This document shows positions 12,970 through 20,247 of a stretch of 53,212 bases of DNA, piece after piece. The stretch is from Prorocentrum cordatum (Eukaryota), in assembly GCA_963575745.1 (NCBI GenBank), contig CAUYUJ010000334.1, positions 62,001-115,212 of the forward strand, read 5' to 3'. The notes beneath the pieces are model-generated. The model was not told the origin of the DNA and did no database searches. It saw only the letters and a program-made list of their open reading frames with translations. The position numbers were made by a program, and so were the translations under genes. Every line of letters starts with the position of its first letter. The stretch's first letter is position 1.

Positions 12970-13118
12970 TTAGGTCGGGCATGTCCCCCTACAGGCGGAC
13001 TTTGGAGGAAAATTAAAAATAGTCCAGAAATGATCAAACATATATAGAAAAAGCGTCCCCAGACTATGCTTGGAGAATTTTTTAATATTCCTCCTGTAGA
13101 GGGATAGGCCCGACTTAC
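12970..13118 (+). mobile_element. MITE family A copy
   Basis: TTAGGTCGGGCATGTCCCCCTACAGG ... CCTGTAGAGGGATAGGCCCGACTTAC; TSD CTCTGGTG/CTCTGGTA. Confidence 0.85.
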
Positions 13119-13341
13119 CTCTGGTACCTACTTGGGGCAAGATCAGTGAGCATCGAATCGGGAGGTCGGATCGAATTCGAACGTTCATCGATCTGGACCG
13201 CATCGGCACGGATTCGGAACCGGAGCGACTAGGCCCCGCCAAGGTGCACAACAGCGGCGTGCGAGCATCGGCCTCGGATCGTCGGGAGGTCGGAATCGAA
13301 TCGGATCGAACCTGGCTAGCTCGAAAGGATGATGATGATGC

Positions 13342-13376
<35 letters not shown>

Positions 13377-14020
13377 GTACGATACGATACGACTCAGCCT
13401 GAATGGAGGTGTAACTCCCGCTGGATGGCAGAACTACCTGGGCAAGTGAAAGAGACAGCAGCGATGGAAGAGAGGCGGGCGTGGGCGCGCCTGAGCGCGA
13501 TCATCGTCGTGACGACCGTCCGAGCCTCCTCTTCAACCAGGCTGTGCGGCTGTCCTGCCACATCTCTGGGTCGGAGGCTAATTCCTGATAGTCTTGACTG
13601 ATCAGAAACTTAAATTGGCCCTCAAATCTCCAAGGTTTGAAAATGTGGCCGTGGCACTGGGAGCCAAAACGTGTTTTAACGTCCGCCAGATAGCGTTGAC
13701 CCCTCCACAGCAGGGCCAGGAGTGCAAGCCTGTCAGGGGCATACTTCTGGAACCTACACACGTGGCCACACCAGTCGAAAACACGGCACAAACAGACTAT
13801 ATCCCATCTCTGGAGACCTAACTTGTCTAGATAGTGGGCCCTCAGACGGTTGACATACGCCAGATGGTCCCCCAAGAAGTCCTCCTCGAAATCCTCGAAC
13901 TCGTCCAGCTTATCTGGGTCCACGTGGCCTGTCTCAGGAACCTCGGGGGCCTTCATCTGGTCATTGTTCGTCGTCATCGTCGTCGTCGTAGTCGGGGGCG
14001 GGCGGGTCGTTTTCGGGGGT

Positions 14021-14154
<134 letters not shown>

Positions 14155-14459
14155 GTGGTGGTGGTGGTGGTGTGGGGGGGGGGGGAGGGGGGGGGTGGGG
14201 GGGGCAGCTTGCGTTTAATAACACGTCTTTCCATAGCAATCTGGACGGCCCGAATTTTTCGAAGATGGTCTTGAGTAAGATGCAGGGTCCCGATGTTGTA
14301 GGTCAGGGCGGGGAGGACAACTTTGTGCAGCAATCTCAACCTATTGGAGATGGTGCCGCACTTCGTGGTCAGCAGCTTCTTATGGCGAGCAAAAGCACTC
14401 CAGGCGGCACGTATGCGCCTGTCCACTTCGACCGAAGCATTGTTATCGAAGGTAATCTG

Positions 14460-15545
14460 ATGGCCCAGGACCTTTATCCCCTGCTCTCTCGGAGTGAAAG
14501 GGATGTGAAAGACGGGGAGGGCGATATCCTCGGTTTTCTTCTGGCGCTTGGTGGGCCGAGGGGCCGCGGCGGACCTCTGGGGGCTGGGCTGGGCCCAGAC
14601 ATCATGCACGGCCAGTCGTGATTGGTGATCCTCAGACGCTGTCCACTGCATCTCATTCAAGTCCACCCACCAGCCTGCTAGCCGTACTAGATTATTCCAA
14701 GCATCAGTCATGAGGGTCACCATCGACGGCGTGAGACCTAGCAGCCAAAAGTTGTCGGCGAAGATGAGTAGCGGGACTCTTCGAATCTGCTGCGAATCCT
14801 CGCCCCTCCTGGTGTGCGCATAATACTCGAAGCCCAGCGGGCGTGCGTCTTCAAAATCCATACGGTAGCCCCAGCCCTTGGACTTGCAAATGGAGAGGAA
14901 GGGACGAATGAGAGTATGTTCCATAATGATGTTACACTTGCGAGGGCCGTCTGGGTCGCCCTGATATATCGATCGAGTCCGAGATATCGGCTGCGACGGA
15001 GGCAGGCGAGGAAGCGCGAGACGGCCTCGTCCGCGTCTAACTTCGCGGATCATGGCGGCGGTAATGACATCGGGCACCGAGGCGAGCTTGAAAGCGTGGC
15101 ACCAGACACCATGGTCAACACAGTCATAACATTTATATATATCACCAGAAACAATATGCAATGGTATCCGAAATTCGATAGCTTTCTCAACCAGGAGGCG
15201 AATAATAAAAATGACCTCGGCCGTCTGGTGCGCAGGGCGAAAGGCAAACTGGTTCGGCGACAGTGGCCGATCTGCAATGCGGCCTAGCTCGGACAGTATC
15301 TGCATATAAGCCTTCCATAGCACCGAGAGGACTGCAATGGGGCGCCATTTCTTAATGTGCAATGGATTGGTCATTTTCTCGATAAGATGAACATCGTGCT
15401 CGTCCCAGCCACAGGGCTCGTCCATCGATGGGTCATTCAGGAGTCTAAGTTCGAAGAGAGAGGCGAGGATCTCGAAGAAATCATCCGAGGCGTCCAGGAA
15501 CATTTCGACGACGAGTAACTCACTTCGGGGGCATGACTTGCCACG
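14460..15545 (-). other. Non-LTR reverse transcriptase domain
   Basis: WRPIAVLSVLWK, NQFAFRP, GDIYKCYDCVDH, IYQGDPDGP, LIFADNFWL, IKVLG. Confidence 0.93.
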
Positions 15546-16376
15546 TTTCATACGAAGGAAAACTTGCCGAACTCGAGCGCCAGAAAGTTGGACGAGGCCC
15601 TCGAGGGCCGAACGGTCCCAGCGTTTCTGGATCCAATCAGGGAGCTGCATGACGTTTTTGGACCGATGCAAATCTCCGAAGAAGGACTCGGCAAGGTCTA
15701 AGATCTCCTGGGGGTCCGTCGTCAGGACGCCTTGCTCGTTAAACATGGCCCCCTGCCAGGTCGGTGGCGGGACACTTCGGTCTGTGCGACCTTTGGGGAG
15801 AAGCCAGTCGCACTCGTACGCGAACTTAGTCTGCTGCAGCTGGCGGCGGATCATAGACTCAGCCGTGCAGTAAAAGTGTCGAAGCTGCTGCGTCGTGGCA
15901 GCTCGTCGGAGAGATCTGACGGCCTCGATGTGGGTACGGGTGATTTCGTCTTCTTCTTTCTCTGGCTTGGGGGGGGGTCTCCGGTTGCGTCGATGTCCGT
16001 GATCGGCGGCGGCGGTCGAAATGGCGTCAGCCAGAAAGCGTAACGAGGGAAGGGGGCGTCCATGGGCATCCGCACAGGGTCTGAAAGGTTCCTCATCGGG
16101 CTCCAGTGGGGGCGTCGCGGGGGCGGGGGCAGGGAGCGGAGAGGTGGCGTGTTCGGACCGACGGTGGCGGGGTCTCTTGCGGAGGGGGAGGCAGGCGGGG
16201 GGCGGGGTAGGGTCGGCCTCCAGCCGACGAGCGAAACACGGAGGAATCTTCCAGGTCGATTCTTCCCCAGGAGGCGGCGTCCAGGAATCCGTCAGCTTGC
16301 TCCAGGGTTCTCGCGGCCAGTAGGAAGGCGTGTAATGTCGCGCACTGATTCGGGCGGGGTGGTTGGACCGAGGGTC

Positions 16377-16895
16377 CGCTCCTTCCTTGGCCAGTAGGTC
16401 GACCGCCGTGCTTCCTCTATCTTGAGAGTGACCTTTGCGCCACTCTGGCAGGCGCACCTGATAGCGCCTGCAAACGTCCTGCCACAGCGCCAGCATGACG
16501 GACACCAGATTCAAATTAGATCGAGGCCGCCATCGTCCCCAGATTATCTGTTGGCAATATCGAGAGTCGAAGATCATCTCGATTTTGGCCTGAGGGGGGA
16601 TCGCCCTGACGTTGTCGGGGAGGGAGTCCTGGAAAATCAGCCACAGAAAGGCCTCAATGGGTGCCGTCAACTCTGCCGTGTTGTTCGACTCTCTACACGC
16701 TCCCACAAAGAGTGGGTCTTCAGGGCCAGTGCATGCTGGTCCACATGCTGAGGCTAAAGGAGAGGGGCCTGCCGTCGGAGACGCCGAAGAAAAAAAGTGC
16801 AAAGCCCCAACCAGCACATCCTCGGAGGTGGTCGCGCGCACGCTTCCGATACCTAGGTAGTGTGTCGTAGAAAGAGCCATCCAGGAAGAGTCCGA
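16377..16895 (-). other. RNase HI-type domain of LINE ORF2, upstream of RT
   Basis: LFLDGS...AGWGF, (frameshift), SNNTAEL, IFDSRY, WRKGH, AVDLLAKEG: the D-E-D-D acidic tetrad and His loop are present. Confidence 0.85.
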
Positions 16896-17069
16896 AAGCC
16901 TCGCCGTCCCGAAAGAAACAGTGTACAGTACGATCGACCTCGAGGGCGTCGTCGAGAGCGTTTCGATAAGCCGTGATATCCGAACAAGTCCAGTTTATTG
17001 GTTTGGGAGGCGGAGGAGGGGAAGCCGCTGTCAGAGTCCAGTTACTGCTAGGATCGCGCACCCGCAGAC

Positions 17070-17825
17070 GTAGATGTAGGGGGAGATGATCAGAGGTGGT
17101 AGCAGTAGAGAAATCTACCGTGCAACTGACCGTGCCCGTAGGGAAGTGCCGTGTGAGAACGTAGTCTATCTGCTTGGGGTCTCTACGCTGTCCAGGATCA
17201 GGAATATGTGTGTGAACACCGTACTTACACCAATGGTATGTATTTCCGCCCGAAGATCTAGATCGCACATGGTAATGAATAACTCCTTGGCCTTCCAAAC
17301 TAACTTATCCAGAACAGGGGGTTCACCGGGAGAACGAGTATAGGGACCTATATGCTCAGCAAAGAGATCGGAGTCAGCGACCGAACCGAGGTGGGCGTTA
17401 GCATCAACGCCGATAATAACCTTAGTCTCATTCGGGACTGAGAGAACGTGCTGACGAATCTCGCGCAGGCTCTCCATCAAAAGAGCCCTATCCTTTGACG
17501 GGTGCAGATGGGCGGAGCCCACCAAGACACGATTGAATTCTGGATGCTCGCACAACGCGCCGACGTAGCGGGTGCCCTGGACCACGCTCAAAATCTTCCA
17601 GCCACAGTCTCGATGGACAATGATCGCATTCTGCCTGTCCTTGCCACTTGGGGGGGCCACAATAAGGCGATGTCCTTCGATCTGCTCTGGAGGTTCTGCT
17701 CGGCGAAGGGCGAGGCATTCCTGTAAAAGCAACATGCGCCATGGGAATTCTCTCTCGAGGTCGCGTAGAAAAATTGGCAGCCCCTTCAGCGAGATCATTC
17801 TGACATTCCAAGAAAGAATACAGGA
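17070..17825 (-). other. APE-type endonuclease domain of LINE ORF2
   Basis: Motifs ILSWNV, LLLQE, NAIIVH, SAHLHP, IIGVDANA, QIDYVL, SDHLPL in canonical order, across one frameshift. Confidence 0.9.
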
Positions 17826-17879
17826 ATGGTCGACTAATCGTCGCTGTCGCCATCTACGCATAGCAAGAGAAGTGCCGCC

Positions 17880-19010
17880 TCAGGGATCCGCCACAGCGTG
17901 GATCTCACCGAGGTGTGTCTGGAGCTTGAGGTCGATGTTCAGGTCCTGCAGCAACGCGTTCGCGGAGGGCGGGATCTTCATCTTGTGGGTGGTCCTGTCG
18001 CAATCGTACACTTTGATGGGGCCTCCCTGGTGGGCGTTCCCTGGCAGCGACACCGGCAGGAAGATGACCTCCCCCCTGTCGTTCTTGATATCGAAGGCTG
18101 CGTCCCAGTTGTGCTGCGGGCTGTTCGGGAAGATGGCTGCCAGGACTGGTTTGAGCTCCGCCGCGGCCTTTACCTGCTGCTTGCTCACGCCGATCTCCCA
18201 GCCGACTTTGTCGATGTTGTGCCAAAGAGCCGTGCGACCTGCCTGGCGAAGGGAGCCACCAGTGAACTTTCTGCCTTTCATCTTCTTGAAACATACCCAC
18301 ATCTGGTCTGAGCTGTAGAAATGTACTTTTACACGTTCACCATAAGAACCAGTACCCACGACGCGCTCGTAGAGGATGTTCTCCCTGTCGAGCTCGGACT
18401 TGATCTGTGCCACCAGCTTGTCGCTAGCGTCGTATTTGAAACCACCAGCACATATAGTTTTTCGTCTACCCATGGGAATGAACACTGCTGTGGATGCTGC
18501 CGAGATAGCCGCCGAGAGCGTCGTAGGCAATGGTGTGTGCACTCCAGAGGCTGGGGTAGCTCCTCCGCCTCTCTGCTGCTGTCCACTCTCGTAGGCGTCC
18601 ATGCGAGCCTCTAGGGCCTGCTGGCGGGAGCTGAGGGAACGGACCTCCACGGAGACCGACGTGACGTTCTTTTGAATCTCCTCGATTTTCACCGTCTGTA
18701 CCTCAGTGGCGTCCTTGATCATGCCACCCATGGCACGAAGGAGACGGGCTTGACCCTCACCAAGGCCTTCTTGCACTGCATGACGGGAGGCTGCGGCAGC
18801 TGCGTCGAAAGGGGCGGAGAGCCGAGGCCTCTGCGCGGGGGGAGCGCCGAAGATGTCTCCGTCAATACCTATCGGCTCCATTGGATGATCACCACCACCA
18901 CCACCAAACATTGCGGGCGACACTGGTTTGGTCAGGATGCAAAGGAGAGGGGCGATGCTCGCCAGTCGGATGCACTGGGAGCGGGTCAAAAGCGCGCGAC
19001 CCCTCGTCAT
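17880..19010 (-). CDS. LINE ORF1 protein (coiled coil plus putative RRM-like region)
   Basis: Intact 376-aa ORF ending 18 nt before the ORF2 ATG. Heptad-like segment VKIEEIQKNVTSVSVEVRSLSSRQQALEARMDAYES, then KTICAGGF...VKVHFYSSDQMW, resembling an ORF1 RRM. Alternative ATG at 18911. Confidence 0.72.
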   Translation of the reverse strand: MTRGRALLTRSQCIRLASIAPLLCILTKPVSPAMFGGGGGDHPMEPIGIDGDIFGAPPAQRPRLSAPFDAAAAASRHAVQEGLGEGQARLLRAMGGMIKDATEVQTVKIEEIQKNVTSVSVEVRSLSSRQQALEARMDAYESGQQQRGGGATPASGVHTPLPTTLSAAISAASTAVFIPMGRRKTICAGGFKYDASDKLVAQIKSELDRENILYERVVGTGSYGERVKVHFYSSDQMWVCFKKMKGRKFTGGSLRQAGRTALWHNIDKVGWEIGVSKQQVKAAAELKPVLAAIFPNSPQHNWDAAFDIKNDRGEVIFLPVSLPGNAHQGGPIKVYDCDRTTHKMKIPPSANALLQDLNIDLKLQTHLGEIHAVADP

Positions 19011-19036: not shown

Positions 19037-19051
19037 CTTGAGCCAAAATGG
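19037..19051 (-). other. Relict dinoflagellate spliced leader (15 nt) at LINE 5' end
   Basis: Plus strand CTTGAGCCAAAATGG is the reverse complement of CCATTTTGGCTCAAG, the exact 3' 15 nt of DinoSL, 26 nt upstream of the ORF1 ATG. Confidence 0.92.
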
Positions 19052-19099: not shown

Positions 19100-19199
19100 N
19101 NNNNNNNNNNNNNNNNNNNNNNNNNNNNNNNNNNNNNNNNNNNNNNNNNNNNNNNNNNNNNNNNNNNNNNNNNNNNNNNNNNNNNNNNNNNNNNNNNNN
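19100..19199. other. Assembly gap (100 N)
   Basis: Run of N between (GAG)n and (GTA)n tracts. Confidence 1.
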
Positions 19200-19248
<49 letters not shown>

Positions 19249-19249
19249 C

Positions 19250-19320
<71 letters not shown>

Positions 19321-19379
19321 TTATTATTATTATTATTATTAGTAGTAGTAGTAGTAGTAGTAGTTTAGTAGTAGTAGTT

Positions 19380-19469
<90 letters not shown>

Positions 19470-19477
19470 TCGTAGTC

Positions 19478-19528
<51 letters not shown>

Positions 19529-20083: not shown

Positions 20084-20247
20084 TGAGGTCGGGCATGTCC
20101 TCCTACAGGCGGATGTTGGGAGACAACTGAAACATGGTCAGAACATACAAGCACAAGCAGCCCCAAAAATAGGAGAAACATCGCCCCAAGGCTTTTCTTG
20201 GACTGCTTCTGGAGTGTGCCTCCTGTAGAGGGACGTGCCCGAGCTAC
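20084..20247 (+). mobile_element. MITE family A copy
   Basis: Both TIRs; exact TSD AGGAAGCC. Confidence 0.85.

Follow-up and report, generated by a model that had tools for sequence, protein, structure and literature searches.

A probable inactivated LINE copy of Prorocentrum cordatum with a predicted RNase H domain between endonuclease and reverse transcriptase

The order of domains in retroelement polyproteins is very stable. To our knowledge, all APE-type LINEs, LTR elements and retroviruses described so far have their RNase H behind the polymerase, and this arrangement fixes the spacing of the active sites on the hybrid. Human LINE-1 ORF2p and R2 proteins are not known to encode an RNase H, and the RTE clade is known for compact elements with neither RNase H nor a long ORF1. 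L1 is reported to use the RNase H2 of its host (PMC6068448). Among the non-LTR elements that do encode the domain, it is downstream of the reverse transcriptase (RT) in I, Ingi, Nimb, LOA, R1, Tad1, Proto1 and the L1 elements of plants and oomycetes (PMC4640811). The only published precedent that we found for a non-LTR element with its RNase H ahead of the RT is Utopia of oomycetes, for which Kojima & Jurka (2015) called this position unique (PMC4640811). In Utopia, a restriction-like endonuclease follows the RT, zinc fingers are located at the N-terminus and U2 snRNA genes are the target (PMC4640811, PMC5348765); the RNase H is archaeal-like, with an Arg replacing the conserved His (PMC4640811). 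In dinoflagellates, the LINEs of Symbiodinium were described by de Mendoza et al. (2018) as having two ORFs, Exo_endo_phos and RVT_1 domains and no poly-A tail (PMC5890265).

The locus analysed here lies in a stretch of 53,212 nucleotides from P. cordatum (contig CAUYUJ010000334.1, positions 62,001 to 115,212), referred to below as the window. A non-LTR retrotransposon, full-length but broken, fills positions 19051-13328 of the window on the minus strand (Table 1). We put at about 0.85 the probability that it is an inactivated full-length copy of an autonomous APE-type non-LTR retrotransposon, with an ORF2 that reads APE, RNase H, linker and RT. A preliminary description had drawn the element at 14460-17825, which lies in the element but is only part of it. 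It had also stated that RNase H sits C-terminal to the RT in the non-LTR clades that carry it, which holds for the APE clades it listed but not for Utopia (PMC4640811).

Table 1. Parts of the retrotransposon copy, in window positions
Feature	Position	Strand	Basis
DinoSL relic (DinoRL, 15/15 bases)	19037..19051	-	exact match
ORF1, 376 aa	17880..19010	-	ATG 19010-19008, stop TGA 17882-17880
ORF2 start and predicted APE endonuclease domain (about 17816-17062)	17062..17879	-	N-terminal matches to relatives, hhalign
RNase H domain, PF00075 type	16377..16902	-	Pfam and alignment to relatives
Proline-rich linker, then conserved N-terminal extension of RT	15483..16376	-	colinear with relatives; consensus of two family alignments
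RT core (RVT_1 15356-14913)	14370..15482	-	Pfam, PDB matches, motif alignment
(CA)n and C-rich simple repeat within ORF2	14022..14204	-	sequence; comparison with P0002
Conserved ORF2 C-terminal region, stop TGA 13503-13501	13501..13887	-	colinear with relatives
3' UTR of ~125 nt and (ATC)16 tail	13328..13500	-	sequence

Judged by its sequence, the element is a LINE, with an N-terminal APE, a non-LTR RT and a simple-repeat 3' end; no LTRs were found around it and no integrase match was found by Pfam in its frames. The (ATC)16 tail (13376-13328, minus strand) is probably the 3' end of the element, and the spliced-leader relic is taken as its 5' end. Directly upstream of the relic is (ATC)5, the same repeat as in the tail, and because both ends abut (ATC)n no unique target-site duplication can be read. 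The direct repeats flanking the element are only microsatellites and a 58-nt interspersed motif, and the copy sits among microsatellites, in contrast to the U2 snRNA gene target of Utopia. An Rfam scan of the window gave no match.

The RNase H domain was recognised by Pfam as RNase_H (PF00075) at residues 101-206 of the long frame 16994->13974, which correspond to 16694-16377 of the window. The match (E 1.4e-5, 25.8 bits) was exactly at the gathering cut-off and covered a partial domain, at profile positions 39-140 of 141. The first third of the domain, which includes the first catalytic Asp (16881-16879), is in a different frame (17304->16720) and aligns to the RNase H of relatives, and in this alignment all five catalytic positions (D-E-D-H-D) are kept in the window copy. 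The relatives score 31-65 bits on PF00075, which fits them far better than PF13456, and the RNase H part of the window matched that of one relative, P0004, with E 3e-23; these scores exclude a chance origin of the domain. On the minus strand, the RNase H (16902-16377) comes first and the RT (15482-14370) follows. The preliminary description, which had placed the RNase H motifs at 16377-16895, was therefore right to within a few bases, and its statement that no RNase H follows the RT also stands: the rest of ORF2 aligns colinearly with the C-terminal parts of relatives and had no match to RNase H, zinc knuckle or any other Pfam domain.

Neither Pfam nor the PDB sequence search recognised an APE in the window pieces, and Pfam recognised none in the close relatives either. 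The three Pfam domains named in the preliminary description were thus only partly called in the window, where RNase_H (at the cut-off) and RVT_1 were recognised but Exo_endo_phos was not. The endonuclease pieces of the window matched the N-termini of intact relatives with E 5e-17 and 2e-11, and when a profile of these N-termini was compared by hhalign with the N-termini of other LINE proteins in which Pfam recognises Exo_endo_phos, the match reached a probability of 99.7% (E 2e-26). From this profile-profile match, the N-terminus of ORF2 is predicted to be an APE with the Exo_endo_phos fold. When the profile of the whole family ORF2 was searched against the PDB, HIV RNase H chains dominated and no APE entry was among the 60 matches listed.

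The RT was recognised by Pfam as RVT_1 at residues 547-694 of the frame 16994->13974 (E 5.3e-9). Its core is homologous to those of human LINE-1 ORF2p and the R2 proteins. The best PDB matches were R2 retrotransposon proteins, both for the window RT (E 3e-7) and for the family profile (E 8e-19), and a typical relative, P0053, matched L1 ORF2p (E 9e-26) about as well as R2 (E 3e-23). Cluster look-ups yielded names for hardly any of the related proteins; in the ESM Atlas, the relative P0144 was near clusters with Exo_endo_phos_2, RVT_1 and RNase_H, which is a lead only as to the clade of the RT. Motif C of the window RT reads F-A-D-N (14762-14751); the family has xADN in place of xADD, and its motif A is D-G-D, with an extra Asp. 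A literature search for FADN and YADN returned unrelated gene names only. With Asn at the second Asp position of motif C, it could be doubted whether the RT works as a normal polymerase.

The same domain order was found repeatedly outside the window. A full HMMER protein search returned 2457 proteins at E<=1e-3, of which 44 reached E<=1e-30; when the 1006-aa frame of the window was the query of a word-indexed search, which took its words from the linker and the low-complexity part, no protein reached E<=1e-5. In a first Pfam scan of 48 long matches, RNase_H was located before RVT_1 in eight (P0002, P0003, P0004, P0005, P0006, P0008, P0030 and P0144), and in a second scan RNase H preceded the RT in 9 out of 13 (L002, L010, L011, L001, L013, P0170, P0171, P0172 and P0174). 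For P0144, which has a normal YADD motif, Pfam called all three domains in the order APE (Exo_endo_phos at 92-250), RNase H and RT. When models of the family's APE and RNase H were applied to metagenome loci, APE was followed by RNase H in all eight that covered this part. Other contigs hold uninterrupted single ORFs of 1167-1329 aa in which APE is followed by RNase H and then by RT, and a single APE precedes each RNase H in the relatives. In an RT tree of 61 rows, the window was located in a 27-row clade with an SH-aLRT of 100, in which RNase H was upstream of the RT in 13 of the 14 members with a known N-terminus; the lone exception, P0009, is nested inside the clade, indicating domain loss. 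The order, as first read from the window and now confirmed by Pfam, hhalign and the alignments of relatives, and its conservation in a monophyletic family, which the preliminary description had named as support, point to a conserved trait of a deep, well-supported family and not a one-off.

The RNase H is also under purifying selection, likewise named there as support, with dN/dS values of 0.09-0.14 (0.086 for L006 vs L028, and 0.11 and 0.14). Identity among four full-length members was 31-48% for RNase H, 27-41% for APE and 37-56% for RT, and in six out of six pairs the RNase H was conserved as much as the APE or more. Of 21 aligned relatives, 11 had the full D-E-D-H-D set, 6 truncated rows kept the residues at all covered positions, and 4 had degenerate residues. 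As four relatives are without the catalytic residues and one is without the domain, RNase H is dispensable in some sublineages. Three family members are named P. cordatum, so that the named members of the clade come from one dinoflagellate, and the lineage has so far been found in dinoflagellate and marine-plankton sequence.

The upstream RNase H could have arisen by relocation within the lineage, in which the domain moved from behind the RT to the front with no new capture from a host, or by independent capture, as the preliminary description proposed, in which a host eukaryotic RNase H1-like gene entered the linker between APE and RT. We consider each of these a serious possibility, at somewhat less than an even chance. 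Two relatives with the classical order bear on relocation: P0073 (partial APE 1-156, RT 519-755, RNase H 1266-1430) and P0177 (APE 82-196, RT 472-720, RNase H 901-1030), with PF00075-type domains that were matched by the family RNase H model (E 4.5e-30 and 6.5e-12, respectively). P0073 adjoins the family in the RT tree and is the only one of 34 non-family RTs with the ADN motif. With this motif in P0073, and an RNase H of the same type behind the RT in both proteins, relocation is as likely as a fresh capture. However, P0073 is outside the RNase H clade of the family in the RNase H tree, where its branch is long and its position uncertain, and no intermediate forms were seen. Capture is suggested by the RNase H profile, which returned 1731 proteins at E<=1e-3 and matched stand-alone cellular RNase HI/H1 proteins over 86-99% of the profile length (best E 7e-37), while retroviral RNase H matched in the C-terminal half only. 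A branch with an SH-aLRT of 96 also groups the LINE domains with eukaryote-type proteins, some of them carrying the hybrid-binding PF01693, apart from a marine archaeal set. These data are, however, also compatible with an ancient cellular-type RNase H of LINEs, and the RNase H tree is unrooted and has long branches. P0144, which has the same order and a YADD RT, may or may not stem from the same event: an AU test of a single clade gave p 0.089, which neither rejects nor establishes it.

Another, less probable explanation is that the architecture is already catalogued, in Repbase or as ORF2 of the Symbiodinium LINEs, and that the window element belongs to a clade already known. In PMC5890265, the legend of Fig. 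1e gives Exo_endo_phos, RVT_1, RNase_H and Phage integrase as the Pfam domains drawn for LINE and DIRS elements, which would agree with this. The window element is likewise a two-ORF dinoflagellate LINE with APE and RT and without a poly-A tail. However, the text of the same paper ties RNase H to DIRS and Gypsy Pol only, and ORF1 of the window has no DNMT domain (no DNA_methylase match at E up to 10 by Pfam), in contrast to SymbioLINE-Dnmt, which has a DNMT in its ORF1. Our literature search found RNase H upstream of the RT in Utopia only. Unlike Utopia, the window element has an APE at the N-terminus, a C-terminal region with no Pfam match, a PF00075-type RNase H that keeps the His, and an ORF1. 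With I, Ingi and the other APE clades that carry RNase H, it shares an APE, an RT and its own cellular-type RNase H, which is presumed to clear away the RNA template once target-primed reverse transcription has taken place, but in those clades the RNase H comes after the RT whereas in the window family it comes before it. Its 376-aa ORF1 and its RNase H do not fit the usual picture of the RTE clade, to which the preliminary description had likened the lineage. In the full-text literature searched, with Repbase outside the search, an RNase H between APE and RT was undescribed for APE-type LINEs, and the terms 'APE-RNH', 'EN-RNH' and 'RNH-RT' had 0 occurrences.

ORF1 had no Pfam match below E 0.04, and the ESM Atlas returned unnamed clusters only. 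By tblastn, its homologues were found upstream of ORF2 in L013, L002, L011, L027 and L028. ORF2 begins directly after the ORF1 stop and in the same frame, so that a single stop codon lies between them, and this is a feature of the family; the first ATG of ORF2 is at 17861-17859. In 6 elements, the sequence behind the ORF1 stop showed no conserved RNA structure, with 0 predicted pairs. The DinoSL relic, with the motif as printed in PMC12014239 and PMC8045281, is 27 nt upstream of the ORF1 ATG and is the sole exact match in the window. Leader relics are also located upstream of ORF1 in relatives, with 15 bases in L013 and an 11-base partial relic in L001.

Based on these leader relics at the 5' ends of three copies, the mRNA of the element may be trans-spliced to the spliced leader. 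ORF1 would then be translated, and ORF2 would be produced by readthrough of the single in-frame stop. After a nick in the target by the APE, the RT would copy the RNA in a target-primed reaction, with D-G-D (motif A) and x-A-D-N (motif C) as its active site. The RNase H supplied by the element could strip the RNA from the RNA:DNA hybrid, allowing the second strand to be made with no need for host RNase H. As the RNase H is N-terminal to the polymerase, spatial reasoning suggests that it cannot trail the polymerase as in retroviral RT, and it would more likely act near the junction of endonuclease and target, or after the polymerase has passed.

We propose tentatively, and with more doubt than confidence, that the family is a deep dinoflagellate LINE clade with four linked departures from all described APE-type LINEs: a cellular-type RNase H between APE and RT, a motif C of x-A-D-N together with a motif A of D-G-D, an ORF2 made only as an ORF1-ORF2 fusion by UGA/UAG readthrough, and a trans-spliced mRNA that is copied to its very 5' end. 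If this is true, each new copy would bear a leader relic whose AG can again be an acceptor, freeing the element from a promoter, and the element would be a prime candidate for the RT behind the leader-tagged retrogenes of dinoflagellates. We know of no enzyme assigned to the retroposition of dinoflagellate mRNAs, and a LINE family with leader relics in its own copies would be a concrete candidate. Retroposition of mRNAs tagged with the spliced leader shapes dinoflagellate genomes (PMC12014239, PMC5585692). A family under selection that has RNase H in front of the polymerase also indicates that target-primed reverse transcription can do without the usual geometry, and is a natural test case for the role of element-encoded RNase H in LINEs. 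Two other departures can be tested as well: the ADN active site and the in-frame stop codon that separates ORF1 from ORF2.

The window copy itself is predicted to be dead. A 1-nt deletion near 17242 breaks the ORF2 frame in the APE region, a surplus base within or beside the T7 run at 16796-16790 breaks it within the RNase H, and the stretch with the (CA)n repeat is ~310 nt longer than in the relative P0002, with a change of frame across the repeat. The two 1-nt indels (~17242 and 16788-16790) and the microsatellite expansion in ORF2 would make the copy nonfunctional. Sibling contigs from four public runs, mostly 95-99% alike, carry the RNase H segment, so that the possibility raised earlier of sister copies lacking it did not hold. 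Relative to the window, contigs of X1 and X3 have one more base behind 17242, and contigs of X2 and X3 have one base fewer at 16788/16790, which restores a single frame from APE through RNase H. The junction of APE and RNase H is bridged by X2 record 14 and X3 record 21, and independent contigs from three studies span it. The two frameshifts break the window copy exactly around the RNase H, which could suggest that the insertion is unique to this copy, that the assembly is chimeric, or that two elements in tandem are being read as one and the RNase H belongs to the upstream copy, but the uninterrupted 1167-1329-aa ORFs elsewhere, the junction bridged in three studies and the one APE per RNase H make this extremely improbable. 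Parts of the element had no contig cover in some of the runs, and 14092-14282 had none in any of the four, a gap from which nothing follows. Joints of 13988 to 18888 were observed in X1 and X5 contigs, within simple-repeat-like sequence.

An APE - RNase H - RT order was reported in the preliminary description for ORF2 of the broken LINE at 19051-13328 on the reverse strand of the window, with no RNase H behind the RT. Pfam recognised RNase_H followed by RVT_1 in the long frame of this copy and nothing recognisable downstream of the RT, in agreement with that report. At 25.8 bits, the RNase H match lies exactly at the PF00075 cut-off because the long frame covers only profile positions 39-140; the first third of the domain, including the first catalytic Asp (16881-16879), is in the frame running from 17304 to 16720. 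The endonuclease of the window copy gave no Pfam or PDB sequence match. With hhalign, the N-terminal 250 residues of its relatives matched the N-termini of other LINE proteins in which Pfam recognises Exo_endo_phos (probability 99.7%, E 2e-26), and the four frames in the window are colinear with intact relatives, corresponding to residues 3-160, 203-329, 338-1131 and 1146-1263 of the related protein P0002. Based on this colinearity, the APE profile match and the Pfam domains, the APE - RNase H - RT order is real.

Features of the window element and of its relatives in metagenome loci (L-numbers)
Feature	Sequence	Position	Strand	Remark
Spliced-leader relic, dinoflagellate	window	19051-19037	-	exact 15 bases; sole copy in window
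ORF1	window	19010-17880	-	376 aa
ORF1 stop	window	17882-17880		
ORF2	window	17879 to stop 13503-13501	-	four frame pieces
RNase_H (PF00075)	window	16694-16377		Pfam, long frame
RVT_1	window	15356-14913		Pfam, long frame
RT motif C	window	14762-14751	-	
3' UTR	window	between ORF2 stop and tail	-	~125 nt
(ATC)16 tail	window	13376-13328	-	
Spliced-leader relic	L013	175-189		
Spliced-leader relic	L001	221-237		
ORF1 stop	L002	1174-1176		
ORF1 stop	L011	1015-1017		
ORF1 stop	L013	1235-1237		
ORF1 stop	L027	1171-1173		
ORF1 stop	L010			
ORF1 stop	L028			

In the window copy, frames A (from 17879) and C (from 16994) are one and the same frame, because 885 = 3 x 295, and the frame shift is confined to the stretch between two 1-nt indels. 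Contigs from public sequencing runs were mostly 95-99% alike to the element; among the 107 contigs of run X1, 19, 57, 15 and 16 were 99+, 95-99, 90-95 and <90 percent alike, respectively. One extra base behind 17242 was found in contigs of X1 and X3, and one base fewer at 16788/16790 in contigs of X2 and X3; by frame arithmetic, these are exactly the two changes needed to bring APE and RNase H into one frame. X1 is possibly the window's own sample and so non-independent, while X2 and X3 come from other studies. By the preliminary description, absence of the RNase H segment from sister copies would have marked it as a one-off insertion; sister copies carry it, and the APE-RNase H junction is bridged in X2 record 14 (16702-17174) and X3 record 21 (16772-17053). 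Further along ORF2, a (CA)n and C-rich microsatellite (14204-14022) has expanded within the coding region, with a different frame on either side; the linker that holds it, which separates the RT from the conserved C-terminus, is variable, and the stretch in which it lies is ~310 nt longer than in P0002. Positions 13988 and 18888, both in repeat-like sequence, were joined in X1 and X5 contigs with a few letters between them.

The order is not restricted to the window. HMMER found 2457 proteins at E<=1e-3, 44 of them at E<=1e-30. In a first Pfam scan of 48 long matches, RNase_H was ahead of RVT_1 in eight, including P0144, which also has Exo_endo_phos at 92-250. Three others ended after RNase H, one (P0073) had the RT and then RNase H, and the remainder carried RVT_1 with or without an APE match, or had no match (P0017). 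RNase_H was ahead of RVT_1 in 9 of 13 in a second Pfam scan, and with family models APE was followed by RNase H in all eight metagenome loci covering that part. An RT tree of 61 rows with near-complete RT cover, omitting fragments among the 150 matches listed, placed the window copy within a clade of 27 rows that sits on a long branch (SH-aLRT 100), and in this clade RNase H was upstream of the RT in 13 of the 14 members with a known N-terminus. The order is thus conserved in a well-supported family, one of the findings that the preliminary description had named as support. P0009 has no RNase H domain yet is nested inside this clade, which suggests that its RNase H was lost. P0144 shares the domain order, but it has a normal YADD RT and is placed elsewhere in the RT tree on a long branch; constraining it into the family cost 23 log-likelihood units (AU p 0.089), a result compatible with one origin of the order as well as with two. 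Prorocentrum cordatum is the named source of three family members, the others being transcript-like or metagenome contigs.

The family is also set apart by its RT active site. Of the 27 family rows, 24 have [FY]ADN at motif C and 25 have D-N there, whereas D-D was found in 33 of the 34 non-family rows, the sole exception being P0073 (WADN). At motif A, D-G-D is likewise present in 24 family rows, but it is absent from all 34 others; the window copy has S-G-D (~15150-15120). No published account of such an RT motif was found in our literature search.

The RNase H is under constraint. The D-E-D-H-D set is complete in the window copy, as it is in 11 of the 21 relatives that were aligned, and all catalytic positions covered were kept in six N-terminally cut or partly aligned rows. 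Catalytic residues were lost in four rows (P0173, P0017, P0007 and P0175), representing sublineages in which the region of the RNase H fold is retained. When four full-length members were compared, the RNase H was 31-48% identical, more than the APE (27-41%) in all six pairs and approaching the level of the RT (37-56%). The dN/dS of RNase H (Nei-Gojobori) was 0.086 between L006 and L028 (123 codons); against L028, L010 gave 0.11 and L011 gave 0.14. For the APE of L006/L028 it was 0.15; values are given only for pairs with at least 55% identity, other pairs being saturated or nearly identical. Purifying selection on the RNase H, also named as support in the preliminary description, is borne out by these ratios of 0.086-0.14.

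For the kind of RNase H, the family profile found 1731 proteins at E<=1e-3 and matched stand-alone cellular RNase HI/H1 over 86-99% of length (best E 7e-37). All 120 matches listed of these 1731 contained PF00075, and five also the hybrid-binding PF01693. HIV RNase H gave a match to the C-terminal half only (E 3e-10), and E. coli RNase HI one over ~100 positions (E 7e-10). A tree was built from 74 cellular domains and 11 from LINEs; it is unrooted and has long branches and short sequences. In this tree, the nine domains of the family formed one clade (SH-aLRT 100), with those of P0144 and P0073 outside it and placed without resolution. All LINE domains grouped with 15 eukaryote-type proteins, apart from 59 of marine-archaeal type (support 96). 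The unrooted tree does not discriminate between capture from the host and relocation within the LINE lineage from behind the RT. The observation in the preliminary description stands, and its interpretation is supported in part, as regards the domain order, its conservation in a family and the selection on the RNase H; the proposed independent capture and RTE-like lineage are tentative.

An RNase H upstream of the RT has been described in the oomycete Utopia element, where this position was called unique (Kojima & Jurka 2015), and a C-terminal RNase H was confirmed in plant and oomycete L1 (Ustyantsev et al. 2017). Utopia differs from our family in endonuclease type, RNase H type and target, and the family RNase H keeps the conserved His, in contrast to the archaeal-like RNase H that Utopia and plant L1 carry. 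No APE-type element with RNase H before the RT was found in full-text literature searches for the RNase H position in non-LTR or dinoflagellate elements (Repbase lay outside this search), and the phrases 'APE-RNH', 'EN-RNH' and 'RNH-RT' had 0 occurrences. The legend of Fig. 1e in de Mendoza et al. (2018) names RNase_H as one of the domains shown in LINE and DIRS elements of Symbiodinium; in the text of that paper, RNase H is tied only to DIRS and Gypsy Pol.

ORF1 and ORF2 share a frame with a single stop codon between them in all seven elements (TGA in six, TAG in one), and in six, the window copy being the exception, there is no ATG between this stop and the first APE motif. ORF2 is therefore probably translated either by reading through the stop codon or from a non-AUG start. 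Downstream of the ORF1 stop, a search for conserved RNA structure found none. The leader relic, a motif printed in PMC12014239 and PMC8045281, precedes the ORF1 ATG by 27 nt in the window, 65 nt in L013 and ~44 nt in L001, the last with an extra CTCAAG after it, which suggests that the mRNAs of these LINEs undergo trans-splicing and are copied up to their 5' end. L002 and L027 have no relic despite at least 78 nt of upstream sequence. Demonstrated here are the domain order, which is conserved and constrained, and the intact sibling copies. As the most likely way of working, a leader-capped mRNA would give ORF1p and, via readthrough, an ORF1-ORF2 fusion, the APE would nick the target for the RT to prime on, and the element's own RNase H would clear the RNA template for second-strand synthesis. 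Because this RNase H comes before the polymerase in the polypeptide, it would be unable to follow behind it in the manner of retroviral RT.

The 53-kb window holds no further copy of the element. The element's true 5' flank is uncertain, because a 100-N assembly gap (19100-19199) and a (TAC)111 array (19200-19528) adjoin just upstream. The 3' tails vary between family members (CGCACA, AGAC, TG, CAG/CAT), and the tail-type repeat is also found directly upstream of the 5' end, as ATC in the window (19073-19058) and TG in L013; (CA)n possibly matches at both ends of L002 in the same way. Such matching ends may have arisen by insertion into microsatellites of the same repeat or from elements arrayed head to tail. 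A 28-nt motif has 12 sites in the window, 11 on the + strand, with none expected by chance; two (12972-12999 and 20086-20113) flank the LINE ~7.1 kb apart and ten are elsewhere. It may be an intergenic or short interspersed element. Upstream of the LINE and likewise on the reverse strand, the frame at 29734-28322 contains the C-terminal domain of Cdc73 (PF05179, E 6e-29), which would fit a one-directional gene array.
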